A stretch of DNA of 64,000 nt from an uncultured Spirochaetota bacterium (lineage in GTDB: Bacteria; Spirochaetota; Spirochaetia; SZUA-6; Fen-1364), in NCBI GenBank assembly GCA_963734545.1, contig CAVTHO010000005.1, positions 320,001-384,000 of the forward strand, in the 5' to 3' direction. This document shows positions 4,033 to 12,441 of the stretch, in pieces. A program made the translations under genes and the position numbers. The stretch's first letter is position 1, and each line of letters begins with the position of its first letter. The notes under the pieces were generated by a model. That model did no database searches and was not told the origin of the DNA. It saw nothing but the letters and a program-made list of their open reading frames with translations.

Positions 4033-5235
4033 CTACTTGGAGACGCTCTGTCCCACCATGCCCTCGAGGAGCTGGGGCAGGTACCAGATCTGCTGATCCG
4101 TTGCCGTCTGGCCGTTTTTCAGGTACGCGGTGCCGTCCTGCAGGTTCAGCGGGCCCTTCCAGAGGTTCAGGCCCCTGGCGAGCTCGGCGGTGAACTTGTC
4201 CACCGCGGCCGCGGCCGGCCGGGACAACGCGGCGCCCTTGTTGAAACCGACGGCCGACGTGTCGGCGCTGTTGATGTTCGACCAATCCGGGCCGTTCCAT
4301 TCAAAGTGGGAGCGATAGGTGCCTGTCATGGCAGCCTTGACGGTCTTGGCATACGCGGGGCCCCAGTTGAAGTAGGGCACGCCCAGGGCCACGCCGGGGC
4401 CTTCGTCGATTGCGTTGGCGTAGTCGTACGGAATCGCCCATACCTTCTTGCCCTGCCCGGCAAGCTTGACGGCCTCGGTTGTGGCTTCGGTTGTGTCGAT
4501 ACCGGAGACCACCACGTCGTAGCCGCTATTGAAGAAGTCATCCGCGACCTGCGACGGGTCGGACGTCACGCCGGGAATGTTGAACCAGAACCCGATCCAG
4601 GTGACTTTGAAGCTCAGCTTCGACGCGTCTTTCTTCAGGTAGTTCACCCAGGCGTAGCGCGCTCCCAGGTACACCGAGGAAGCGAGGCGCCGGGTCTCCG
4701 CATTGATGAGCGGCCCCAGGTAGCCGATCTTGCCGGTCTGGGTCGTCATGGCGGCGGCCACGCCCGCGATCATCTTGGTAAACTCCATCCTCCCCATGAT
4801 ATTGACCATGTTGGGAAGGGCCTGGTAGTCCTTGCCGTCCTTCCACACCTGGCTGCCCGAGCTCATGATGACGAATATGTCCCCGTGAGCCTGGGCGAAC
4901 TTCACCGCTTCGTCGCTCATGTCGTCAGAGCTGAAGATGACGAGCTTCGCGCCTTTGGCCACGAGGCTCTCGGCAAGCTGTGAAGCGGTCGTGCCCGGGC
5001 GGTCCGCGGGATTGACCTTGTCCAGGTAGATCATCTGCGTACCGGGGACCTTGGCCACGACGTACTGGATCCCGTCATAGTGGGCCTGACTCCAGCCGTG
5101 GTCATTGTAGGGACCGACGAGCAGGAGGCCGATGGTGAGGCTGCTGCCCGCAGCCGGTGGCGCGCTTTGCCCGTAGGCTGTCGCGGCAACGGCAATGGCT
5201 GCCAACAGCAGGAAGAGCCTGCAAAACTTACGCAT
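4033..5235 (-). CDS. BMP-family ABC substrate-binding protein
   Basis: Signal peptide MRKFCRLFLLLAAIAVA; VGPYNDHGWSQAH, TQTGKIGYLG, VTWIGFWF, YFNWGP. Confidence 0.88.
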   Translation of the reverse strand: MRKFCRLFLLLAAIAVAATAYGQSAPPAAGSSLTIGLLLVGPYNDHGWSQAHYDGIQYVVAKVPGTQMIYLDKVNPADRPGTTASQLAESLVAKGAKLVIFSSDDMSDEAVKFAQAHGDIFVIMSSGSQVWKDGKDYQALPNMVNIMGRMEFTKMIAGVAAAMTTQTGKIGYLGPLINAETRRLASSVYLGARYAWVNYLKKDASKLSFKVTWIGFWFNIPGVTSDPSQVADDFFNSGYDVVVSGIDTTEATTEAVKLAGQGKKVWAIPYDYANAIDEGPGVALGVPYFNWGPAYAKTVKAAMTGTYRSHFEWNGPDWSNINSADTSAVGFNKGAALSRPAAAAVDKFTAELARGLNLWKGPLNLQDGTAYLKNGQTATDQQIWYLPQLLEGMVGQSVSK

Positions 5236-5353
5236 TTTCCTTCTCCTTTGCCGGGTCGTGCTCTCTATGAAGCACGGCATATGTATGGGATCGAACGAGA
5301 GTATACAATACGGGTACAGGCCCCCGCAAGCTCGCTGCCGGGACAGGAACCTC

Positions 5354-6628
5354 CTAGGGACGGACCCTCTTCCTGTCACGCGGGAAGAGCGTGGCCTCCT
5401 TGACGCTTGCCAGGCCCAGGATCTTCTGCGTCAGCCGCTCCATTCCGATGGCAAAGCCCCCATGCGGCGGACAACCGTACTTGAATATGGAGAGGTAGTC
5501 GGAGAGTCCGACCGGATCCAGCCCGAACGCTTTTGCGCTTTCCACGAGCATCTCGTATTGGTTGATCCGCATGCCCCCGGACGTGACCTCCAGGCCGCGA
5601 AAGAGCAGGTCGAATGCGCGGGTCTTGTTGTTCTCCGCCGGGTATGTATAGAAAGGCCGGGACTTGCGCGGATAGGCGTACACAAAGGCCGCCTCGATTC
5701 CTTTTTCTTTCAGGGCCCATTCGCAGAGAGAGCGTTCGGCCTCTGGCGTTATCTCATAGACCTTTTTTCCCATCTCCCGGGAGACGATCTCACGAGCCTC
5801 GTCATGGGAGACACGCGGGATTGCGGCGCACAGCGCGGGATCCGGAACCGCGGCATGCCATGCATCCAGGTCCCGCTGGTTTGATTCCCTGATGCCGCGG
5901 AAAATGGCGGCAAGGATCCTGGTTTCAAGGTCCATGAGCTCCTGCTCGCTCTCGATGAAAGCCATTTCCACGTCCAGGGAAACGAACTCGTTGATGTGCC
6001 GCGGTGTGTCGTGCTTTTCCGCCCTGTAGGCAGGACCGATTTCGAATACGCGCTCCATGCCCGAAGCGATCATGACCTGCTTGTACAGCTGCGGCGACTG
6101 CGTCAGGTAGACCTTCGTATCGAAGTATTCCACTGAAAACAGGCCCGTGCCCCCTTCGGTACCCGTTCCTATCAGCTTGGAGGTCTTTATCTCGCTGAAC
6201 CCCTCGCTGCGCAGGTGCGCGGCGAAGCAGCGCAGCAGGGTCGACTGGATCCGGAAGATCGAAAGGATGGCCGGGTTGCGCACCGAGATCATCCTGTTGT
6301 CCAGAATGGCCTCGAGGTTCGTCTTGCCGGGGTCCTGGTTCACGGGAAAGGGAAGGTCGGCGGCGGCAGCGGAGATGACCTCCAGTGTCCTCACCCGAAC
6401 CTCGAAGCCACCGGGGGCTTTCTCATTGGCCGCGGCGCTGCCCTCGACACGGATGACCGACTCGAGGGTCACTTCGGGCCGGGCGTCGAACACCAGTTGT
6501 GCGCTCCCGCTTCGATCACGCAGCAGCACGAACGATACCCCGCCCAGGTCCCTGATCCTGTGCACCCACCCGTACAGGGTGACTTCCGCGCCGACCTTTG
6601 AGGCGAGCTCAGAGACAAGCGTCCGCAT
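5354..6628 (-). CDS. aspS: Non-discriminating aspartyl-tRNA synthetase (short, archaeal/AspRS2 type)
   Basis: GWVHRIRDLGG, YLTQSPQLYKQ, YRAEKHDTPRHINEF, GCPPHGGFAIGMERL; no GAD insertion; gatCAB operon. Confidence 0.92.
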   Translation of the reverse strand: MRTLVSELASKVGAEVTLYGWVHRIRDLGGVSFVLLRDRSGSAQLVFDARPEVTLESVIRVEGSAAANEKAPGGFEVRVRTLEVISAAAADLPFPVNQDPGKTNLEAILDNRMISVRNPAILSIFRIQSTLLRCFAAHLRSEGFSEIKTSKLIGTGTEGGTGLFSVEYFDTKVYLTQSPQLYKQVMIASGMERVFEIGPAYRAEKHDTPRHINEFVSLDVEMAFIESEQELMDLETRILAAIFRGIRESNQRDLDAWHAAVPDPALCAAIPRVSHDEAREIVSREMGKKVYEITPEAERSLCEWALKEKGIEAAFVYAYPRKSRPFYTYPAENNKTRAFDLLFRGLEVTSGGMRINQYEMLVESAKAFGLDPVGLSDYLSIFKYGCPPHGGFAIGMERLTQKILGLASVKEATLFPRDRKRVRP

Positions 6629-9022
6629 TGCCCACCTCCATTCCTGCAAGCAGCTCTTCCTCGGTCTCGGAAAATGCAGAGCACATCACGAGCCGGGTCC
6701 AGGCGGACTCGGTCGTGAGCGAGCCCATCGGGATTGCCCCCTCGCGCCACAACTCGTGGGAGGTCACATAGCGGGAGAAATCGACGATTCCTTCCTGCTG
6801 GGACGTGCAGAAAAAGTGAACCCCCTTCTCCCGGGCGGCGAGGAGCGCCTTGCGCAGCGAATAGGGGGAATCGCGAAGATTGGCGGTCCCTGTGTCATAG
6901 AGCTCCAGCACGAAGTTCTTCACTCCCCGGTCCATGAGCTCGATGAGATGGTCGCCCCGCATTCCCGGGTAGACGCGCAGCATCAACGTGGAGTTGATGG
7001 CCGTCTCGAAACGGGCCTTCAGCTTCTCCCTGTCACCGGAGAGGGGCAGATCGTCGAACAGCGGTGTGCCGGCGTGGCAGGGCTTGGTCATGTTCCAATT
7101 CCTGAATCCGTCGGCCGCCATGCGCTCGAACTTGAGATTGACCGGGGAAAGAACCTTTCCGCCGAAAACCACGTACACGCCCGGCTCCCTCTCCGCGGCG
7201 GTGCGAATAGCCATGCGCAGCGTCGCAATGGCGTCGCTGCCCGGCTTCCCGCCGGCTGGAGGGAGGCGGCAAGAACGATCGGGACCAGCGGGCGGGGGAA
7301 GAGCCAGAACACGAGTGATGCGGTGTATGCCAGGGTGTCGGTTCCATGGGTCACTACGATTCCCGATGCCCTTCCCCCGCGGAGGCGCTCGTCGATTCCC
7401 GCGGCCAGGCGGGCCCAGTCTTCCGGCGTGATCTCCTCGCTCAGGATCCTTCCGACCTCTCCCTCCTCGAAAGCGATCGTGCGGCTGAATCCGCCCTCCG
7501 CCTCCACGAGGCGCATGATCTCGGAAGGATCGCCCGCCACCACGTCGCCCTGCTCGGTTTCCCTGGCCGCGATGGCGCCGCCGAGAGAGAGGATCTGGAT
7601 GACGGAAACAGCGAGTTTCTGCTTCACGAGCGCCTGGACAAGGGCCGGATCGGCCCTGCCGGAAGTCTCGCGCATCATCTCACCGATCAGGTACGTCGTG
7701 GGCCGATGATCGCCCGCCTTGATGGCGGCAACGGCCGCCGTGTTGGCCTGCAGGACCTTCTCGAGGTATGCGCCCAGCTCCGCCGGGTCAGTGATCTGCT
7801 CCCAGCCTTTTTCCTTGATGATCGTGCGAGGGTCCTTGTTCTCCGCAAAGACCATCTCCAGAACGGACTTGGCAATCTTTCCGTGTATGCGCTTTGCCGC
7901 GAGGAGAGAGAGCAGCTCGGCGAACCTGCCCGGCGTCAGCGGGCTCGCCGCCAGCGTCACGGAAGCGCGATTGAGATGCTTCTTCACGTCGGAGGCCAGC
8001 CAGAGAGCGGCGCTCTTCGCGTCCGCGCCGAGACGCACGGTTTCCTCGAAATAGTCGGCTGTGGACTTCTCGTCGCAAAGGAAGTCCGCCTGCTCTTCGC
8101 TCAGGCCGAAGGAATCGATGAACCTGCGCGTGCGGGCCTCGGGAAGCTCCACCAGGGATTCCTCGACGTGACGGAGGAACTCCTGGTCCGGCGCAAAGGG
8201 AGGCAGGTCAGGCTCGGGAAAATAGCGGTAGTCCGAAGAGCTCTCCTTGGTGCGCATGCTCTCGGTGACGTCCCGGTTCTCGTTCCACAGCCGCGTTTCG
8301 GTGGTCACGCTGCCGCCCCGTTCGAGGATCTCGGTCTGGCGTTCGATCTCGTACGAGATGGCCTTGCGCACGAATTTGAACGAGTTGAGGTTCTTGACCT
8401 CGACCTTGCTCCCCAGGCCGCGGCCCTCGAGGTTCACGGAGACATTGGCGTCACAGCGCAGCGAGCCTTCCTCCATGTTTCCGTCGCACACCCCCAGGTA
8501 CCGCACCAGCCGGCGCAGGTGCTGAAGAAATACCTCTGCCTCTTCGCCGACCTCCAGGTCCGGCTGCGTGACGATTTCAAGGAGCGGCGTGCCCGCCCTG
8601 TTGAAATCGAGCAGCGTGATCTCACCTGCGTGGATCATCTTCCCCGCGTCCTCCTCGAGATGGACCTCGCGGATGCGGACGCGCTTCTTCCGCTTGCGCA
8701 GCTCGATCTCCACCCAGCCGTCGGTGCCCAGAGGCGAGCGGAATTGCGAGATCTGGTAGTTCTTGGGAAGATCGGGATAGAAGTAGTTCTTTCGCTCGAA
8801 CATGGTGGACGCACTGAGCGTGCAGTTCAGCGCCCGCGCCACGAGATACCCCATGCCGATGGCGTTCGCGTTCAGCGCGGGGAGCACCCCGGGGTAGCCC
8901 AGGCAGACGGGGCACACATTGCTGTTGGGCTCGTCACCGAAAGCCGCCTTGCACCCGCAGAAGACCTTGGTGCGTGTCAGAAGCTGCGTATGGACCTCGA
9001 GGCCGAGGAACGATGCGTACAC
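6609..9022 (-). CDS. gatB: GatB fused to C-terminal L-asparaginase/GatD-like domain (one frameshift near 7249)
   Basis: GLEVHTQL, RKNYFYPDLPKNYQISQ, EGSLRCDANVS, YRYFPEPDL, then in frame HGTDTLAYTAS; continues in 6609..7214 frame (VYVVFGG, CTSQQEG). Confidence 0.88.
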
Positions 9023-9024
9023 CG

Positions 9025-10408
9025 CTACCTCCAGTCCGCCGGGAACCCAGGCGCATCTGGCGAGGGGAACACTTTTTCGAGTTTGCGGCACGCGGCGAAC
9101 AGGCGGCCTTCGGCAAAGGCAGGCGCGAGGAACTGCATGCCGATGGGGAGCCCGTTTTCGAGGCCCGCGGGAAATGAAAGCGCGGGAAGCCCGGCAAGAT
9201 TCGCCGCGCAGGTGAATATGTCGGCGAGCTTCTGCGAGAACGGGTCGGCCTCGGCGCTCCCGCGCGTGAAGGGGGGCACCGGATAGACGGGCATCAACAC
9301 GAGGTCGACACCGGCGAATGCCTTCTCGAAGTCGCCCCTGATAGCGGTGCGGATCTTCTGGGCGCGCAGGTAGTATTCCTCCTGGAAGCCCGAACGCAGG
9401 ACATAGGTGCCGAGCAGAATGCGGAGCTTCACCTCGTCCCCGAAGCCCTCTGTCCGTGAAGCGATGCTCATGGCCTCGGGGTTGTCGGCGCGCGCCGTGC
9501 GGTGGCCGTACCGCACGCCGTCGAACCGCGCCAGGTTGGCGCTCGCCTCGGCCGTAGCGATGACGTAGTAGGAGGAAACCACGTGATCCAGAGTCGGGAA
9601 CGACACTTCTTCGAGGTCGTGCCCGAGGTCCCTGAGCATACCTCGGGTACGCGCAAAGGTCTTTTTCACGTCAGGGTGCAGGGGGACGTCGGCTACTTCA
9701 CGCGGCACACCGATACGCAGGCGGCCGGTCTTCTCTGCGGCCGGTTGCCACGGCAGGGAAGAATGATCCATGGGATCCTGTCCGCGCATGATCTCAAAGA
9801 CCGCCTCCGTCATGTCGACGGTCTTGGCCATCACGCCGATCACCTCGAGGGAGGACGCGTAGGCCACCAGACCGAACCGCGAGACAGATCCCCAGGTCGG
9901 TTTCAGCCCGTAGACGCCGCAGAAGGAGGCTGGCTGGCGTACCGATCCACCGGTATCGCTCCCGAGGCCGAATGCCACCATGCCGCCGGCAACCGCTGCC
10001 GCAGTGCCTCCACTGGACCCGCCGGGAACGCGCGTGGGGTCCCAGGGATTCCTTGTTTCCATCAAAGCCGAATTCTCGGTCGAGGAGCCCATGCCGAACT
10101 CGTCCAGGTTTGTCTTGCCCGCTACGACGGCACCTGCCTGCTGGAGCCGCCGTACCGCCGTGGCGGTGTAGGGGGAGACGAAATCTTTGAGCATGCGGGA
10201 AGCCGCACGTGAGGCGGAAGGAGCGGACGGCAATGTTGTCCTTTACGGCGAATGGAACGCCCGCGAGGGGTCCATTCGGCGACGTTTCGACCGCGCCGAG
10301 CGCGGGGTCGATCTGAAGAAAACAGCCGAGGTCTCTCTGGCGGGCGTTGGCAAAGGCCATCCACCTTTCCCGGGGCCCTTCGGATGTCGCTGTGCCATGC
10401 CAGTCCAT
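9025..10408 (-). CDS. gatA: Amidotransferase subunit A (frameshift near 10200)
   Basis: GVPFAVKDNI, GKTNLDEFGMGSSTENS, PGGSSGG, GSDTGGSVRQPA split over two frames. Confidence 0.9.
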
Positions 10409-10448
10409 TGCACCTCCGCCCGTCTGAAGGGCGATTTCTCGAGTTTTC

Positions 10449-10727
10449 CTACAGTACGTTCGGGATGACGATGAAGCGCTCTTCGCGTTCGGGAGCGTTC
10501 CCGAGGAGCGTATCCGAGTTCGAGGGATCGATGCCCACATCCTGACGGAGCCTGTTTTCCCTCAGCAGGGCGTGCGTGGTAGGCGCCAGGCCCGCCACAT
10601 CGATCTCCTTCATGTGTGAGAAGTACGCCAGCATCTGCTCCACGGCCACGCGCAGCCGCTCCCGCTCCTCCTCGGAAAGGTTCAGGCGGGCCATGCGGGC
10701 TGTCTCGGTGAGCTCACCAGCGTCCAT
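10449..10727 (-). CDS. gatC: Amidotransferase subunit C
   Basis: TARMARLNLSEEE...LRQD...NAPEREERFIVIPNVL. Confidence 0.9.
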   Translation of the reverse strand: MDAGELTETARMARLNLSEEERERLRVAVEQMLAYFSHMKEIDVAGLAPTTHALLRENRLRQDVGIDPSNSDTLLGNAPEREERFIVIPNVL

Positions 10728-10965
10728 GTCGGTAGTTAACCCGGCCCCCCCTGCCGTGTCAAGGAGAGCGGCGGGCTCTGGTGACCAAAAGCAGGGCAGC
10801 GGAGGGAGCCGGACCATCTCCTGAGCCAATTTGCTTGACGAATGCCGCACGGAGTCCGTACATTTGAGTTTGGAGATTTGCGCTTCCGAACAGTGAAAAT
10901 GTCGAATCGAGACCTCCCGAGCCGCGCCGGAGATACTCTTTCACGTCCGAATTTGAAAATTGCGT

Positions 10966-11019: not shown

Positions 11020-12441
11020 GTGGTTAAGAAGGACTTTCCAAAAATACATTTTTACGATCAGGATCTTGTATCCCTCTACGATGAAACATGGAACCTCATC
11101 AAGGACTTTTGGAAAAAGGGAACATCGGCCAACGGATTCCACAGCAGGTTCTTCAGCCACCCTGACAGCACGCGCATCAATCAGTTCGACGCGTGTTTTT
11201 CCTCGTTTTTCCTCGTCTATTCGAACCGCATCTATCCCGTGATGTCCGCGCTCGACAATTTCTACTCCAAGCAGGAGGAATCAGGGGCAATCCGCGGCGA
11301 GTACCGCGCCTCGGACGGCAAACCCATTCATCCCCGGGAGAATCCCAAGGGTGTTCTCCCCCCGCTCTTTGCATGGGCGGAGTTCAACATCTACCACAAG
11401 CTCGGCGTCAAAAAGCGTATCCGTGAAGTCCTGCCGGTGCTGGAGAAGTACTTCCGGTGGATCGAGACGACCTTCAAGGCTGAAAACGGGCTCTACTCGG
11501 TGCCGCTTGCGGCAACCATGATGGAAAACTCGCCTCGTGAAGACATGCGGTACCCCATCGACTTCAATTCGCAGATGGCGCTCGCCGCGTTCTACATGTC
11601 GGAGCTGGCCGACATCATCAACGACAAGGAAACCAACTACGCCTACAAGAAGGCGTACTTCTCCCTGAAAACCAAGATCAATTCCCTCATGTGGGACGAA
11701 AGAGACGCGTTCTACTACGACCTGGACGCGTCGGAGAAGCGCCTCAAGGTGAAGACCATCGCCTCGTTCTGGCCCCTCATCGCTGAGATCCCCAACGAAG
11801 CCAGGGGGGAATGGTTGATCGAGCACCTGGTGGACCCGCATGAGTTCGGCATTGAGAACCCCTTCCCCACGCTGGCAGTCAAGGACAAGCGCTTCGATGC
11901 CCAGGGCTCCGGCTATCGAGGCTCGGTGTACCCCCCGTTCAATTACATGGTGATCAAGGGATTGGAAAAGTACAAGCGCCACGACCTCGCCCGCGAGTTC
12001 GCCATCCGGCATCTCTATCACGTGCTGGACGGGTTGTATACGAGCAACGGCAAGAAGGGCTCCCTGTACGAGGCGTATGCGCCTCACACGGAAGGCCCGG
12101 CAAAATGGCCGGGCAAGAAAGGCTTTCCGCGGACAATGTTCGTGCCGTATACGGCGCTCACCACCGTCTCGCTGATGCTGGAAAACATCATTGGCTTGAA
12201 CATCTCCCTGCCTCGAAAAACGGTCGATTGGACCATACCGACCCTTGAGGCCATGGGCATCGGGGACCTCGCCCTGAAGCGAAACCTTATCTCTATCCTC
12301 AGTGCAAAGAGCAGTCGGGGCTGGGAGGTCCACCTGGAAAGCGAAAAACTCTACTACCTGACCATCGACCTGTTCGGCGCACGGAGCAAGACCCTGCCCA
12401 TCCCCTCGGGAAAATGCTCCATCCTGGTGGACAAGCTGTAG
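11020..12441 (+). CDS. GH63/MGH1-like (trehalase-like) glycoside hydrolase
   Basis: NQFDACF, PPLFAWAE, MENSPR, MWDERDAFYYD, YRGSVYPPFNYMVIKGL, LYEAY. Confidence 0.75.
   Translation: MVKKDFPKIHFYDQDLVSLYDETWNLIKDFWKKGTSANGFHSRFFSHPDSTRINQFDACFSSFFLVYSNRIYPVMSALDNFYSKQEESGAIRGEYRASDGKPIHPRENPKGVLPPLFAWAEFNIYHKLGVKKRIREVLPVLEKYFRWIETTFKAENGLYSVPLAATMMENSPREDMRYPIDFNSQMALAAFYMSELADIINDKETNYAYKKAYFSLKTKINSLMWDERDAFYYDLDASEKRLKVKTIASFWPLIAEIPNEARGEWLIEHLVDPHEFGIENPFPTLAVKDKRFDAQGSGYRGSVYPPFNYMVIKGLEKYKRHDLAREFAIRHLYHVLDGLYTSNGKKGSLYEAYAPHTEGPAKWPGKKGFPRTMFVPYTALTTVSLMLENIIGLNISLPRKTVDWTIPTLEAMGIGDLALKRNLISILSAKSSRGWEVHLESEKLYYLTIDLFGARSKTLPIPSGKCSILVDKL

Follow-up and report, generated by a model that had tools for sequence, protein, structure and literature searches.

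The stretch of DNA analysed here (64,000 nucleotides (nt) from an uncultured Spirochaetota bacterium; assembly GCA_963734545.1, contig CAVTHO010000005.1, positions 320,001 to 384,000; referred to in full as the window) carries on its minus strand an operon in the order gatC-gatA-gatB::asnL-aspS, as seen from the list of open reading frames (ORFs) and a profile search. The third gene encodes a three-part protein, in which a complete GatB is followed by an asparaginase-like domain, here called asnL, that has lost the nucleophile of asparaginases. The fusion gene and its parts are as follows.

6609..9022, minus strand: gatB::asnL fusion gene, from GTG at 9022 to TGA at 6611-6609; 804 amino acids (aa) when read through a one-base break
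7613..9007, minus strand: GatB body, with GatB_N at about 9007-8174 and the GatB_Yqey tail domain at about 8056-7613 (Pfam)
6612..7600, minus strand: asnL, a domain of the type I asparaginase fold with both lobes (Pfam Asparaginase and Asparaginase_C), about five linker residues past the GatB tail
7574..7576, minus strand: Ala (codon GCC) at the position of the nucleophilic Thr, GGAIA against GGTIA in the alignment with 1WLS, an asparaginase of Pyrococcus horikoshii
7433..7441, minus strand: Ser-Glu-Glu (column counts) replacing the canonical Asp-Ser-Ser/Thr substrate-binding stretch, within the predicted dimer interface (residues 61-68)
7334..7348, minus strand: HGTDT (second catalytic Thr and Asp), kept, as read from the sequence
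7131..7133, minus strand: Lys aligned with the asparaginase triad Lys (1WLS alignment, LKFERM against SKIRSM)
7248..7250, minus strand: G run of the frame break, GGG in the window and GGGG in the related locus L008

The likely start of the fusion gene is the GTG at 9022, which lies behind a GGAGG and 3 nt past the gatA stop (TAG, 9027-9025). The domains are spread over two ORFs of the minus strand, that at 7088..9091 matching GatB_N (E-value (E) 3.7e-113), GatB_Yqey (E 3.7e-41) and Asparaginase (E 4.7e-22, over positions 2-117 of 193 of the profile only) and that at 6609..7214, in another frame, matching Asparaginase_C (E 4.7e-11; all Pfam). Regarding membership of the GatB family, the GatB part encoded at L008, a locus of the same-genus genome G002 at which this part is 95% identical to the window product, passes the NCBIfam cut-offs of NF004012 (606.6 bits, cut-off 338), NF004014 (581.8 bits, cut-off 414) and TIGR00133 (548.2 bits, cut-off 314.8). 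The motifs GLEVH, FERKNYFYPDLPKNYQISQ and HLEEDAGK, to which we ascribe catalytic roles in GatB, are visible in the window product, and its partner genes, gatC and gatA, come immediately before it on this strand (Pfam GatC and Amidase). The neighbouring genes are as follows.

10449..10727, minus strand: gatC, about 92 aa from a Met that aligns with relatives (Pfam GatC, E 3.1e-15; start from a DNA alignment to the relative L015)
9025..10408, minus strand: gatA, the amidase subunit (Pfam Amidase, E 3.9e-121, on the ORF 9025..10233), its N-terminal piece lying in another frame
5354..6628, minus strand: aspS, encoding an archaeal-type non-discriminating aspartyl-tRNA synthetase (AspRS), whose first 20 nt, from the ATG at 6628, overlap the fusion gene
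11020..12441, plus strand: MGH1-like/trehalase-like glycoside hydrolase, divergent from gatC (Pfam PF22422, E 1.5e-31), used as a synteny marker

The product of aspS scores above the cut-offs of the NCBIfam models for aspartate--tRNA(Asn) ligase, at 507.2 bits (cut-off 353) and 402.9 bits (cut-off 368.4). Directly downstream of aspS lies a gene for a Bmp/PnrA-like ABC-transporter substrate-binding lipoprotein (4033-5379, minus strand). The amidase motifs of gatA are all visible in the sequence.

The two frames of the fusion gene join at the G run 7250-7248, where the window reads CCGGC-GGGAAG and L008 reads CCGGCGGGGAAG in a DNA alignment, so that one G is missing from the window; three-frame translation places the frame change between ...SLQPAG and KPGSDAIATL.... 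With an X at the break the product has 804 aa and no stop, and it aligns without gaps to the database protein P0152 (804 aa), with 763 of 804 residues identical. The gatA gene is likewise split, by a one-base insertion near 10200-10201 (TT against a single T in G002, relative L015; DNA alignment). Contigs from four wetland metagenome runs (X1-X4), which represent related populations from samples other than the source and are mostly 90-99% alike, were aligned over window positions 6500-10900. Each of the three contigs that span the break (X1, X3 and X4) has an extra base at 7247/7250, the X2 contig stopping at 7250 and so not spanning it, and both contigs that bridge the gatA site (X1 and X4) have one base fewer at 10202. 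Depth gaps and joints along this alignment stem from short contigs of mixed relatives. Further frame changes are found in the same assembly, which consists of 10 contigs and is 89% complete: rpoC (G000:C9:92248-96520) switches frame between model positions 909 and 911, and a bacterial-type aspS (G000:C6:223727-225476) switches frame at position 510. The assembly seems to bear frequent one-base indels. Two neighbouring matches resembling glutamyl-tRNA synthetase (C7:1000587-1000945) lie in different frames.

The bridging contigs and the relatives are in frame, and gatA, rpoC and the second aspS are frameshifted too; the break near 7249 can therefore almost certainly be put down to the assembly, the gene being whole in the living organism. 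The gatA insertion is an assembly error as well. A programmed frameshift at 7249 was considered and ruled out, as relatives and the other metagenomes are plainly in frame. The initial annotation had described a complete GatB running on into an asparaginase-fold domain at 6609-9022, and had proposed that one extra base near 7249 would give a product of about 804 aa; coordinates, motifs and length estimate were all correct, and the gapless match and the bridging contigs bear out the extra base. Its further statement that GatA is present with intact amidase motifs holds for the motifs but not for gatA as assembled, given the insertion. Findings of frameshifts in this genome need care, as one-base indel errors hit essential genes of the assembly.

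The fusion is real and conserved. Uninterrupted fused ORFs, of 803-809 aa from their likely starts, are present in the six relatives examined, as the initial annotation had foreseen for a genuine fusion, and in L013 and L014 the C-terminal 576-578 aa lie in a single frame. In 17 of 40 relatives the open frame that contains the asparaginase match is 800 aa or longer, few of the shorter frames having been examined. Among species-representative genomes asnL stands directly behind GatB in 22 of 80 GatB loci, and the fused loci that have names all belong to Spirochaetota, including Gracilinema caldarium and termite-gut Treponema metagenome-assembled genomes (MAGs). In an even sample of 400 other Spirochaetota genomes asnL was detected at E <= 1e-32 in 12, all of them in the class of the window and distributed over three family codes (8 of 50, 2 of 4 and 2 of 2 genomes). 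Among 1.84 billion cluster representatives there were 38 matches to asnL at E <= 1e-30, and these strong representatives are either full fusions, about 790-817 aa long, or fragments, ordinary asparaginases scoring lower; a free-standing asnL was not found among these 38. Matches of 321-373 aa were considered as free-standing asnL and rejected, since they begin with the end of the GatB tail or inside asnL and look like fragments of fused genes. A word-indexed search returned 673 matches, the best 120 of which are mostly 794-822 aa long and contain the Pfam domains; where the fused proteins among these best 120 are named, they are labelled only 'GatB', a label that hides asnL from annotation-based surveys. 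No paper on a fusion of GatB with an asparaginase domain was found in the full-text literature, subscription journals and supplements lying outside its coverage.

Selection keeps asnL as tightly as the catalytic GatB body. Between the window and L008 the ratio of nonsynonymous to synonymous substitution rates (dN/dS) stands at 0.044 in asnL and 0.046 in the GatB body, with dS at 0.54-0.56, and at larger distances the ratios are 0.09-0.22 for asnL against 0.08-0.20 for the GatB body.

Regarding the active site of asnL, the nucleophile of the family, which we take to be the second Thr of TGGT, consistent with the Met at the first position of the 1WLS motif, is replaced: in the alignment with 1WLS the Ala of SLGGAIA stands opposite the Thr of GMGGTIA, an Asp stands opposite the Tyr of the flexible loop and Leu-Ser-Glu stands opposite Asp-Ser-Thr. 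Amide hydrolysis by asparaginases and GatD depends on a nucleophilic Thr together with a triad of Thr, Lys and Asp (PMC2330236). Columns were counted over 185 family sequences, 120 of which are close relatives from one search, so that the counts are not independent. The nucleophile column contains Ala in 157 sequences, Ser in 5, Thr in 3, Gly in 2, Val in 2, Arg in 1 and a gap in 15, that is, Ala in 157 of the 170 members with a residue there; Thr is kept in P0012 and P0030, among others, and P0009 has Ser. The remainder of the pocket is close to invariant in the same set, with Ser-Glu-Glu in 174, 173 and 164 sequences, the Thr, Asp and Thr of HGTDT in 165 (Leu in 7), 174 and 174, and the triad position occupied by Lys in 142 and Arg in 33. 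Distant members decay further (HGLDT, HGADT). The reading LGGAIA for TGGTIA with HGTDT kept and GCC as the Ala codon, given in the initial annotation, is confirmed at 7576-7574 and 7348-7334, and the Thr-to-Ala change that it had proposed to follow in other members is conserved. Because the nucleophilic Thr is an Ala and the loop Tyr is gone, asnL would, as judged from these alignments, be unable to hydrolyse Asn or Gln by the mechanism of the family. Thr-to-Ala mutants of true asparaginases have been solved with bound Asn (7c8x and 5dnc, by their Protein Data Bank entry titles in the Foldseek list), and going by these titles the substrate can still be bound after such a change.

One remote branch of the fused proteins (P0030, P0032, P0036, P0037 and P0039) has GatB motifs that look canonical and an asnL identity of 32-35%. 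GGAI is present in all of these with the exception of P0030, which has Thr at the first position and HGADT; HGTDT is replaced by HGLDT in P0032, P0037 and P0039 and by GGLDS in P0036.

The structure of asnL was modelled from the L008 sequence with AlphaFold2 (98-row alignment), giving a mean predicted local distance difference test score (pLDDT) of 93.4 and a predicted template modelling score of 0.92. The best Foldseek matches of the model are asparaginases of Thermococcus and Pyrococcus, with template modelling (TM) scores of 0.77-0.80, and the type I L-asparaginase fold named in the initial annotation is thereby supported by prediction. A homodimer of asnL was also predicted, with scores of 0.84, 0.84 and 0.83 against 0.00 for the best control, contacts agreeing by at least 90% between runs and a partner pLDDT of 84; in calibration the mark of the tool was reached by 20 of 30 solved homodimers and by 1 of 23 monomers. 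The predicted interface comprises residues 61-68 (including Ser-Glu-Glu), 96-98 (Thr-Asp-Thr), 167-170 (beside the Lys), 211-224 and 244-257 (YDTGTA...). Asparaginases form their intimate dimers through this face of the active site.

Regarding the origin of the domain, the best sequence matches of asnL are type I asparaginases of Thermococcales (E 3.6e-33 to 1e-30), followed by GatD (E 1.6e-21). A FastTree phylogeny was computed from 102 rows, namely 23 domains derived from loci, 8 fragments, 67 free-standing asparaginase-like representatives (each with a single long match) and 4 GatD sequences, the full-length representatives P0004-P0039 and matches in two stretches being left out. The fused domains form one clade of 31 rows (support 100) among a few divergent free-standing proteins, and GatD falls elsewhere; the four GatD rows are true GatD (474-640 bits). 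A quick IQ-TREE analysis of 50 rows recovered both the fused clade and the GatD clade with a support of 99. Forcing the fused domains and GatD together costs 15.85 log-likelihood units, and the approximately unbiased (AU) test does not reject the joint clade (p-AU 0.236). Thus, on sequence evidence, the trees separate the two groups, yet GatD ancestry is not rejected, the AU test allowing a sister relation. An origin from the neighbouring standalone asparaginase-like lineage (P0042, P0043, P0049, P0055 and P0099) was considered and set aside; none of these proteins reaches the cut-off of any named family. When loci were searched with P0043, only three distant archaeal (DPANN) loci turned up, at 29-31% identity. 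A second, short gene with an asparaginase N-terminal domain is found elsewhere in the genome (G000:C5:242658-245984, match at C5:244158-244484), with a TGA inside the match; most relatives have equivalents that cover profile positions 2-162 in open frames of only 165-198 aa, and it looks like a conserved stand-alone half-asparaginase.

The genome has a single GatB_N match and encodes, besides the operon, asparaginyl-tRNA synthetase (AsnRS, 478 bits), glutaminyl-tRNA synthetase (GlnRS, 675 bits) and an AsnB-like enzyme (430.8 bits summed), all above their cut-offs, as well as a second, bacterial-type AspRS (599 bits).

Comparison of the fused loci revealed two forms. The operon form, seen at 15 loci and in the window, has the order gatC-gatA-gatB::asnL-aspS and canonical GatB motifs, and at all 15 operon-type loci aspS comes soon after asnL, starting within about 35 nt of the end of asnL by tblastn coordinates; unfused spirochaete operons share the gatB-aspS order without asnL. 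The derived form is a lone fused gene, found at seven loci of Treponema and Gracilinema (L026, L028, L031, L033, L041, L065 and L078; in Gracilinema caldarium at L026:5911-8394), none of which has gatC, gatA or aspS within its flanks. Its GatB part is only 36-44% identical and its asnL 46-52% identical, with GGAI kept, and its GatB motifs are degenerate, for example with SLEVR standing for GLEVH and SLRIR for LLEIV at residues that presumably have catalytic roles. In one MAG the derived form (L078) occurs together with an unfused gatA-gatB-aspS (L053).

The two forms share a neighbour. The glycoside hydrolase of the window shares 60% identity with the gene adjoining the derived fusion of Gracilinema caldarium (L026). 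An upstream gene of this kind is present at 11 of the 15 operon-type loci, at 5 of the 7 derived loci and at 5 unfused ones, the four operon-type loci that lack it having short upstream flanks. Because this neighbour is shared, the derived form is most simply explained as the operon locus having lost gatC, gatA and aspS. The pairing of glycoside hydrolase and gatC is kept across fused and unfused spirochaete gatCAB loci; no functional link between them is evident. As asnL is retained where the GatB motifs look inactive, its role would, from these sequences, seem partly independent of GatB chemistry.

Taken together, asnL is probably a non-hydrolytic, homodimerising domain that pairs two GatCAB complexes and perhaps also binds a ligand, rather than a source of ammonia. 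In such a scheme GatCAB, with the co-translated non-discriminating AspRS, would make Asn on tRNA(Asn), and the C-terminal 330 or so residues that constitute asnL would most likely form the usual intimate homodimer of asparaginases. The YqeY tail of GatB binds tRNA. Since asnL is tied to this tail by only about five residues, the dimer would bring two GatCAB complexes together, in a manner resembling the GatD dimer that pairs two GatE in archaeal GatDE, an arrangement that would correspond to the dimeric state of AspRS. At the interface, the pocket (Ser-Glu-Glu, Thr-Asp-Thr and Lys/Arg) may bind an amino-acid-like ligand without turnover, and its near-invariance suggests that such binding persists. 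Three roles had been proposed in the initial annotation, a sensing pseudo-enzyme, an oligomerisation scaffold and a second ammonia source. A pseudo-enzyme appears to fit best, in view of the prevailing Ala and the absent loop Tyr; a scaffold fits the predicted homodimer; and the ammonia source is unlikely.

Several points weigh against this interpretation. The pass of the dimer prediction may merely reflect the memory that the model has of many solved asparaginase dimers, and would then indicate likeness; the pairing of full-length GatCAB is moreover extrapolated from the dimer of the isolated domain. The near-invariance of Thr-Asp-Thr and Lys/Arg exceeds what a scaffold needs, so that some chemistry or specific binding may remain. 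Three members of the family keep Thr and five have Ser at the nucleophile position, and the conservation counts are dominated by close relatives (120 of 185 rows from one search). Finally, the metagenome contigs stem from other populations than the source, which would leave room for a real strain-specific lesion, an outcome of very remote probability.

The scaffold, sensor and docking readings overlap in part. Foremost among them is an amino-acid sensor that would bind free Asn, Asp or Gln without hydrolysis and tune tRNA-dependent Asn synthesis to supply. The near-invariance of the pocket residues other than the nucleophile would suit such a sensor, as would the mutant asparaginases that hold Asn in their crystals, and the redundant routes through AsnRS, GlnRS and the AsnB-like enzyme would make regulation useful. 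However, the changes of Gln, Ser or Thr to Glu in the Ser-Glu-Glu stretch shift the charge of the pocket, and the derived form keeps asnL where perhaps nothing is left to regulate; as read from these sequences, a sensor is unlikely.

Another reading, which is rather more doubtful, would have the nucleophile-less pocket at the dimer interface recognise aspartyl or asparaginyl groups, whether free or at the 3' terminus of tRNA(Asn), making asnL a hand-off device on the GatB tail that senses product or substrate and whose tRNA-linked binding outlived the amidotransferase in Treponema and Gracilinema. A second tRNA-linked role is what the derived form itself suggests, with asnL kept, its partners lost and the GatB motifs degenerate.

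Alternatively, asnL could be a docking platform for the aminoacyl end of Asp- or Asn-tRNA(Asn), or for AspRS, which stabilises a transamidosome-like complex or hands the product on. The 20-nt overlap of aspS with the fusion gene and its place close behind asnL in every operon-type locus are in favour of this, as are the attachment of asnL directly to the tRNA-binding YqeY tail and the persistence of tail and asnL in the derived form while the catalytic motifs of GatB decay. Unfused spirochaete operons, however, have the identical gatB-aspS order without asnL, and the derived form has no adjacent aspS, which makes docking improbable.

The possibility that asnL is a second source of ammonia, an active amidohydrolase that supplies GatB in the way GatD supplies GatE but through another nucleophile, such as the Thr kept in HGTDT, draws on the retained Thr-Asp-Lys triad (Thr, Asp and Lys or Arg in 165, 174 and 175 of 185 sequences, respectively) and on the few members with Thr or Ser at the first position. 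Against it, Ala prevails at that position and the loop Tyr is lost, the second Thr is also lost in some members (HGLDT), the amidase motifs of GatA are all present in the operon and, judging by domain order, asnL would sit on the tRNA-binding tail, away from the catalytic cradle of GatB; with no nucleophile in asnL and an apparently intact GatA beside it, this function is decidedly improbable. It is most improbable that the operon is a decaying pseudogene in which the frameshifts in gatA and gatB::asnL are real and tolerated because AsnRS, GlnRS and the AsnB-like enzyme make GatCAB dispensable, as two frameshifts inside 3 kb of one operon and the redundant direct pathways encoded in the genome might suggest, since both indels are missing from every bridging contig of the other metagenomes, the product has no stops or further lesions, dN/dS is about 0.045, and frameshifts in rpoC and the bacterial-type aspS point to indel errors of the assembly.

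The family itself is present in public databases under the GatB name; new here are the evidence for assembly errors in the fusion gene and gatA, the redundant Asn and Gln routes of the genome, and the shared glycoside-hydrolase synteny that ties the derived form to the operon locus. If asnL pairs GatCAB complexes or senses an amino acid, it would give tRNA-dependent asparagine synthesis a further level of architecture or regulation, and would also be a clear case from nature in which an enzyme fold has become a module for binding or scaffolding. If the tRNA-linked hand-off pocket exists, it would represent a new class of pseudo-enzyme that handles aminoacyl-tRNA.

Regarding known systems, the profile scores place the protein in the GatB family, in a setting of GatCAB with non-discriminating AspRS, and place asnL outside the family cut-offs of both type I asparaginases and GatD. 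As in bacterial GatCAB, the window GatB has full GatB_N and YqeY domains, gatC and gatA upstream and an adjacent gene for an archaeal-type non-discriminating AspRS; it differs in the extra domain of about 330 aa, which to our knowledge no characterised GatB protein contains. The derived proteins resemble the window protein in their three-part architecture, GGAI and, in 5 of 7 loci, the glycoside-hydrolase neighbour, and are unlike it in having no gatC, gatA or aspS nearby and degenerate GatB motifs. Deinococcus radiodurans and Thermus thermophilus have AsnRS, GlnRS, GatCAB and a second, archaeal-type AspRS, and use GatCAB for tRNA-dependent asparagine synthesis (PMC4206432); the window organism has this same configuration of GatCAB and non-discriminating AspRS, including AsnRS, GlnRS and the bacterial-type AspRS. 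It additionally has the AsnB-like gene.

The type I asparaginases of Thermococcales (1WLS, 4Q0M of Pyrococcus furiosus and 5OT0 of Thermococcus kodakarensis) are like asnL in their two lobes, HGTDT and the triad Lys, and the predicted interface of the asnL dimer uses the same active-site elements. In asnL, by contrast, Thr is changed to Ala, the loop Tyr to Asp and Asp-Ser-Thr to Leu-Ser-Glu, and the domain scores 119.4 bits (L008) and 130 bits (L012) against the type I asparaginase model TIGR00519, which has a cut-off of 260.5.

Bacteria feed their GatB-family enzyme with ammonia through the amidase GatA and archaea through the asparaginase GatD, and a bacterial GatB that has GatA present yet bears a conserved asparaginase fold without a nucleophile cuts across these GatCAB and GatDE alternatives. 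In GatDE, too, an asparaginase fold is joined to a kinase/transamidase of the GatB family; GatD (1zq1) ranks seventh among the Foldseek matches of asnL, with a TM score of 0.75. Whereas GatD is a separate subunit with a Thr nucleophile, asnL is fused to the C-terminus of GatB, has Ala at this position and occurs alongside GatA. Against the GatD models TIGR02153 and NF003217 asnL scores 110.7-114.9 bits, with cut-offs of 310-324 and matches that start only at profile position 51-69 or so, so that the N-terminal part specific to GatD may be absent, and the GatD rows form a clade apart from the fused domains, a sister relation being allowed by the AU test. The analogy with GatD drawn in the initial annotation stands for the fold and for the dimer, both as predicted, and does not extend to family scores. 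Archaeal GatDE is an alpha2beta2 complex in which a GatD homodimer carries two GatE (PMC2330236), and asnL is likewise predicted to form a homodimer.

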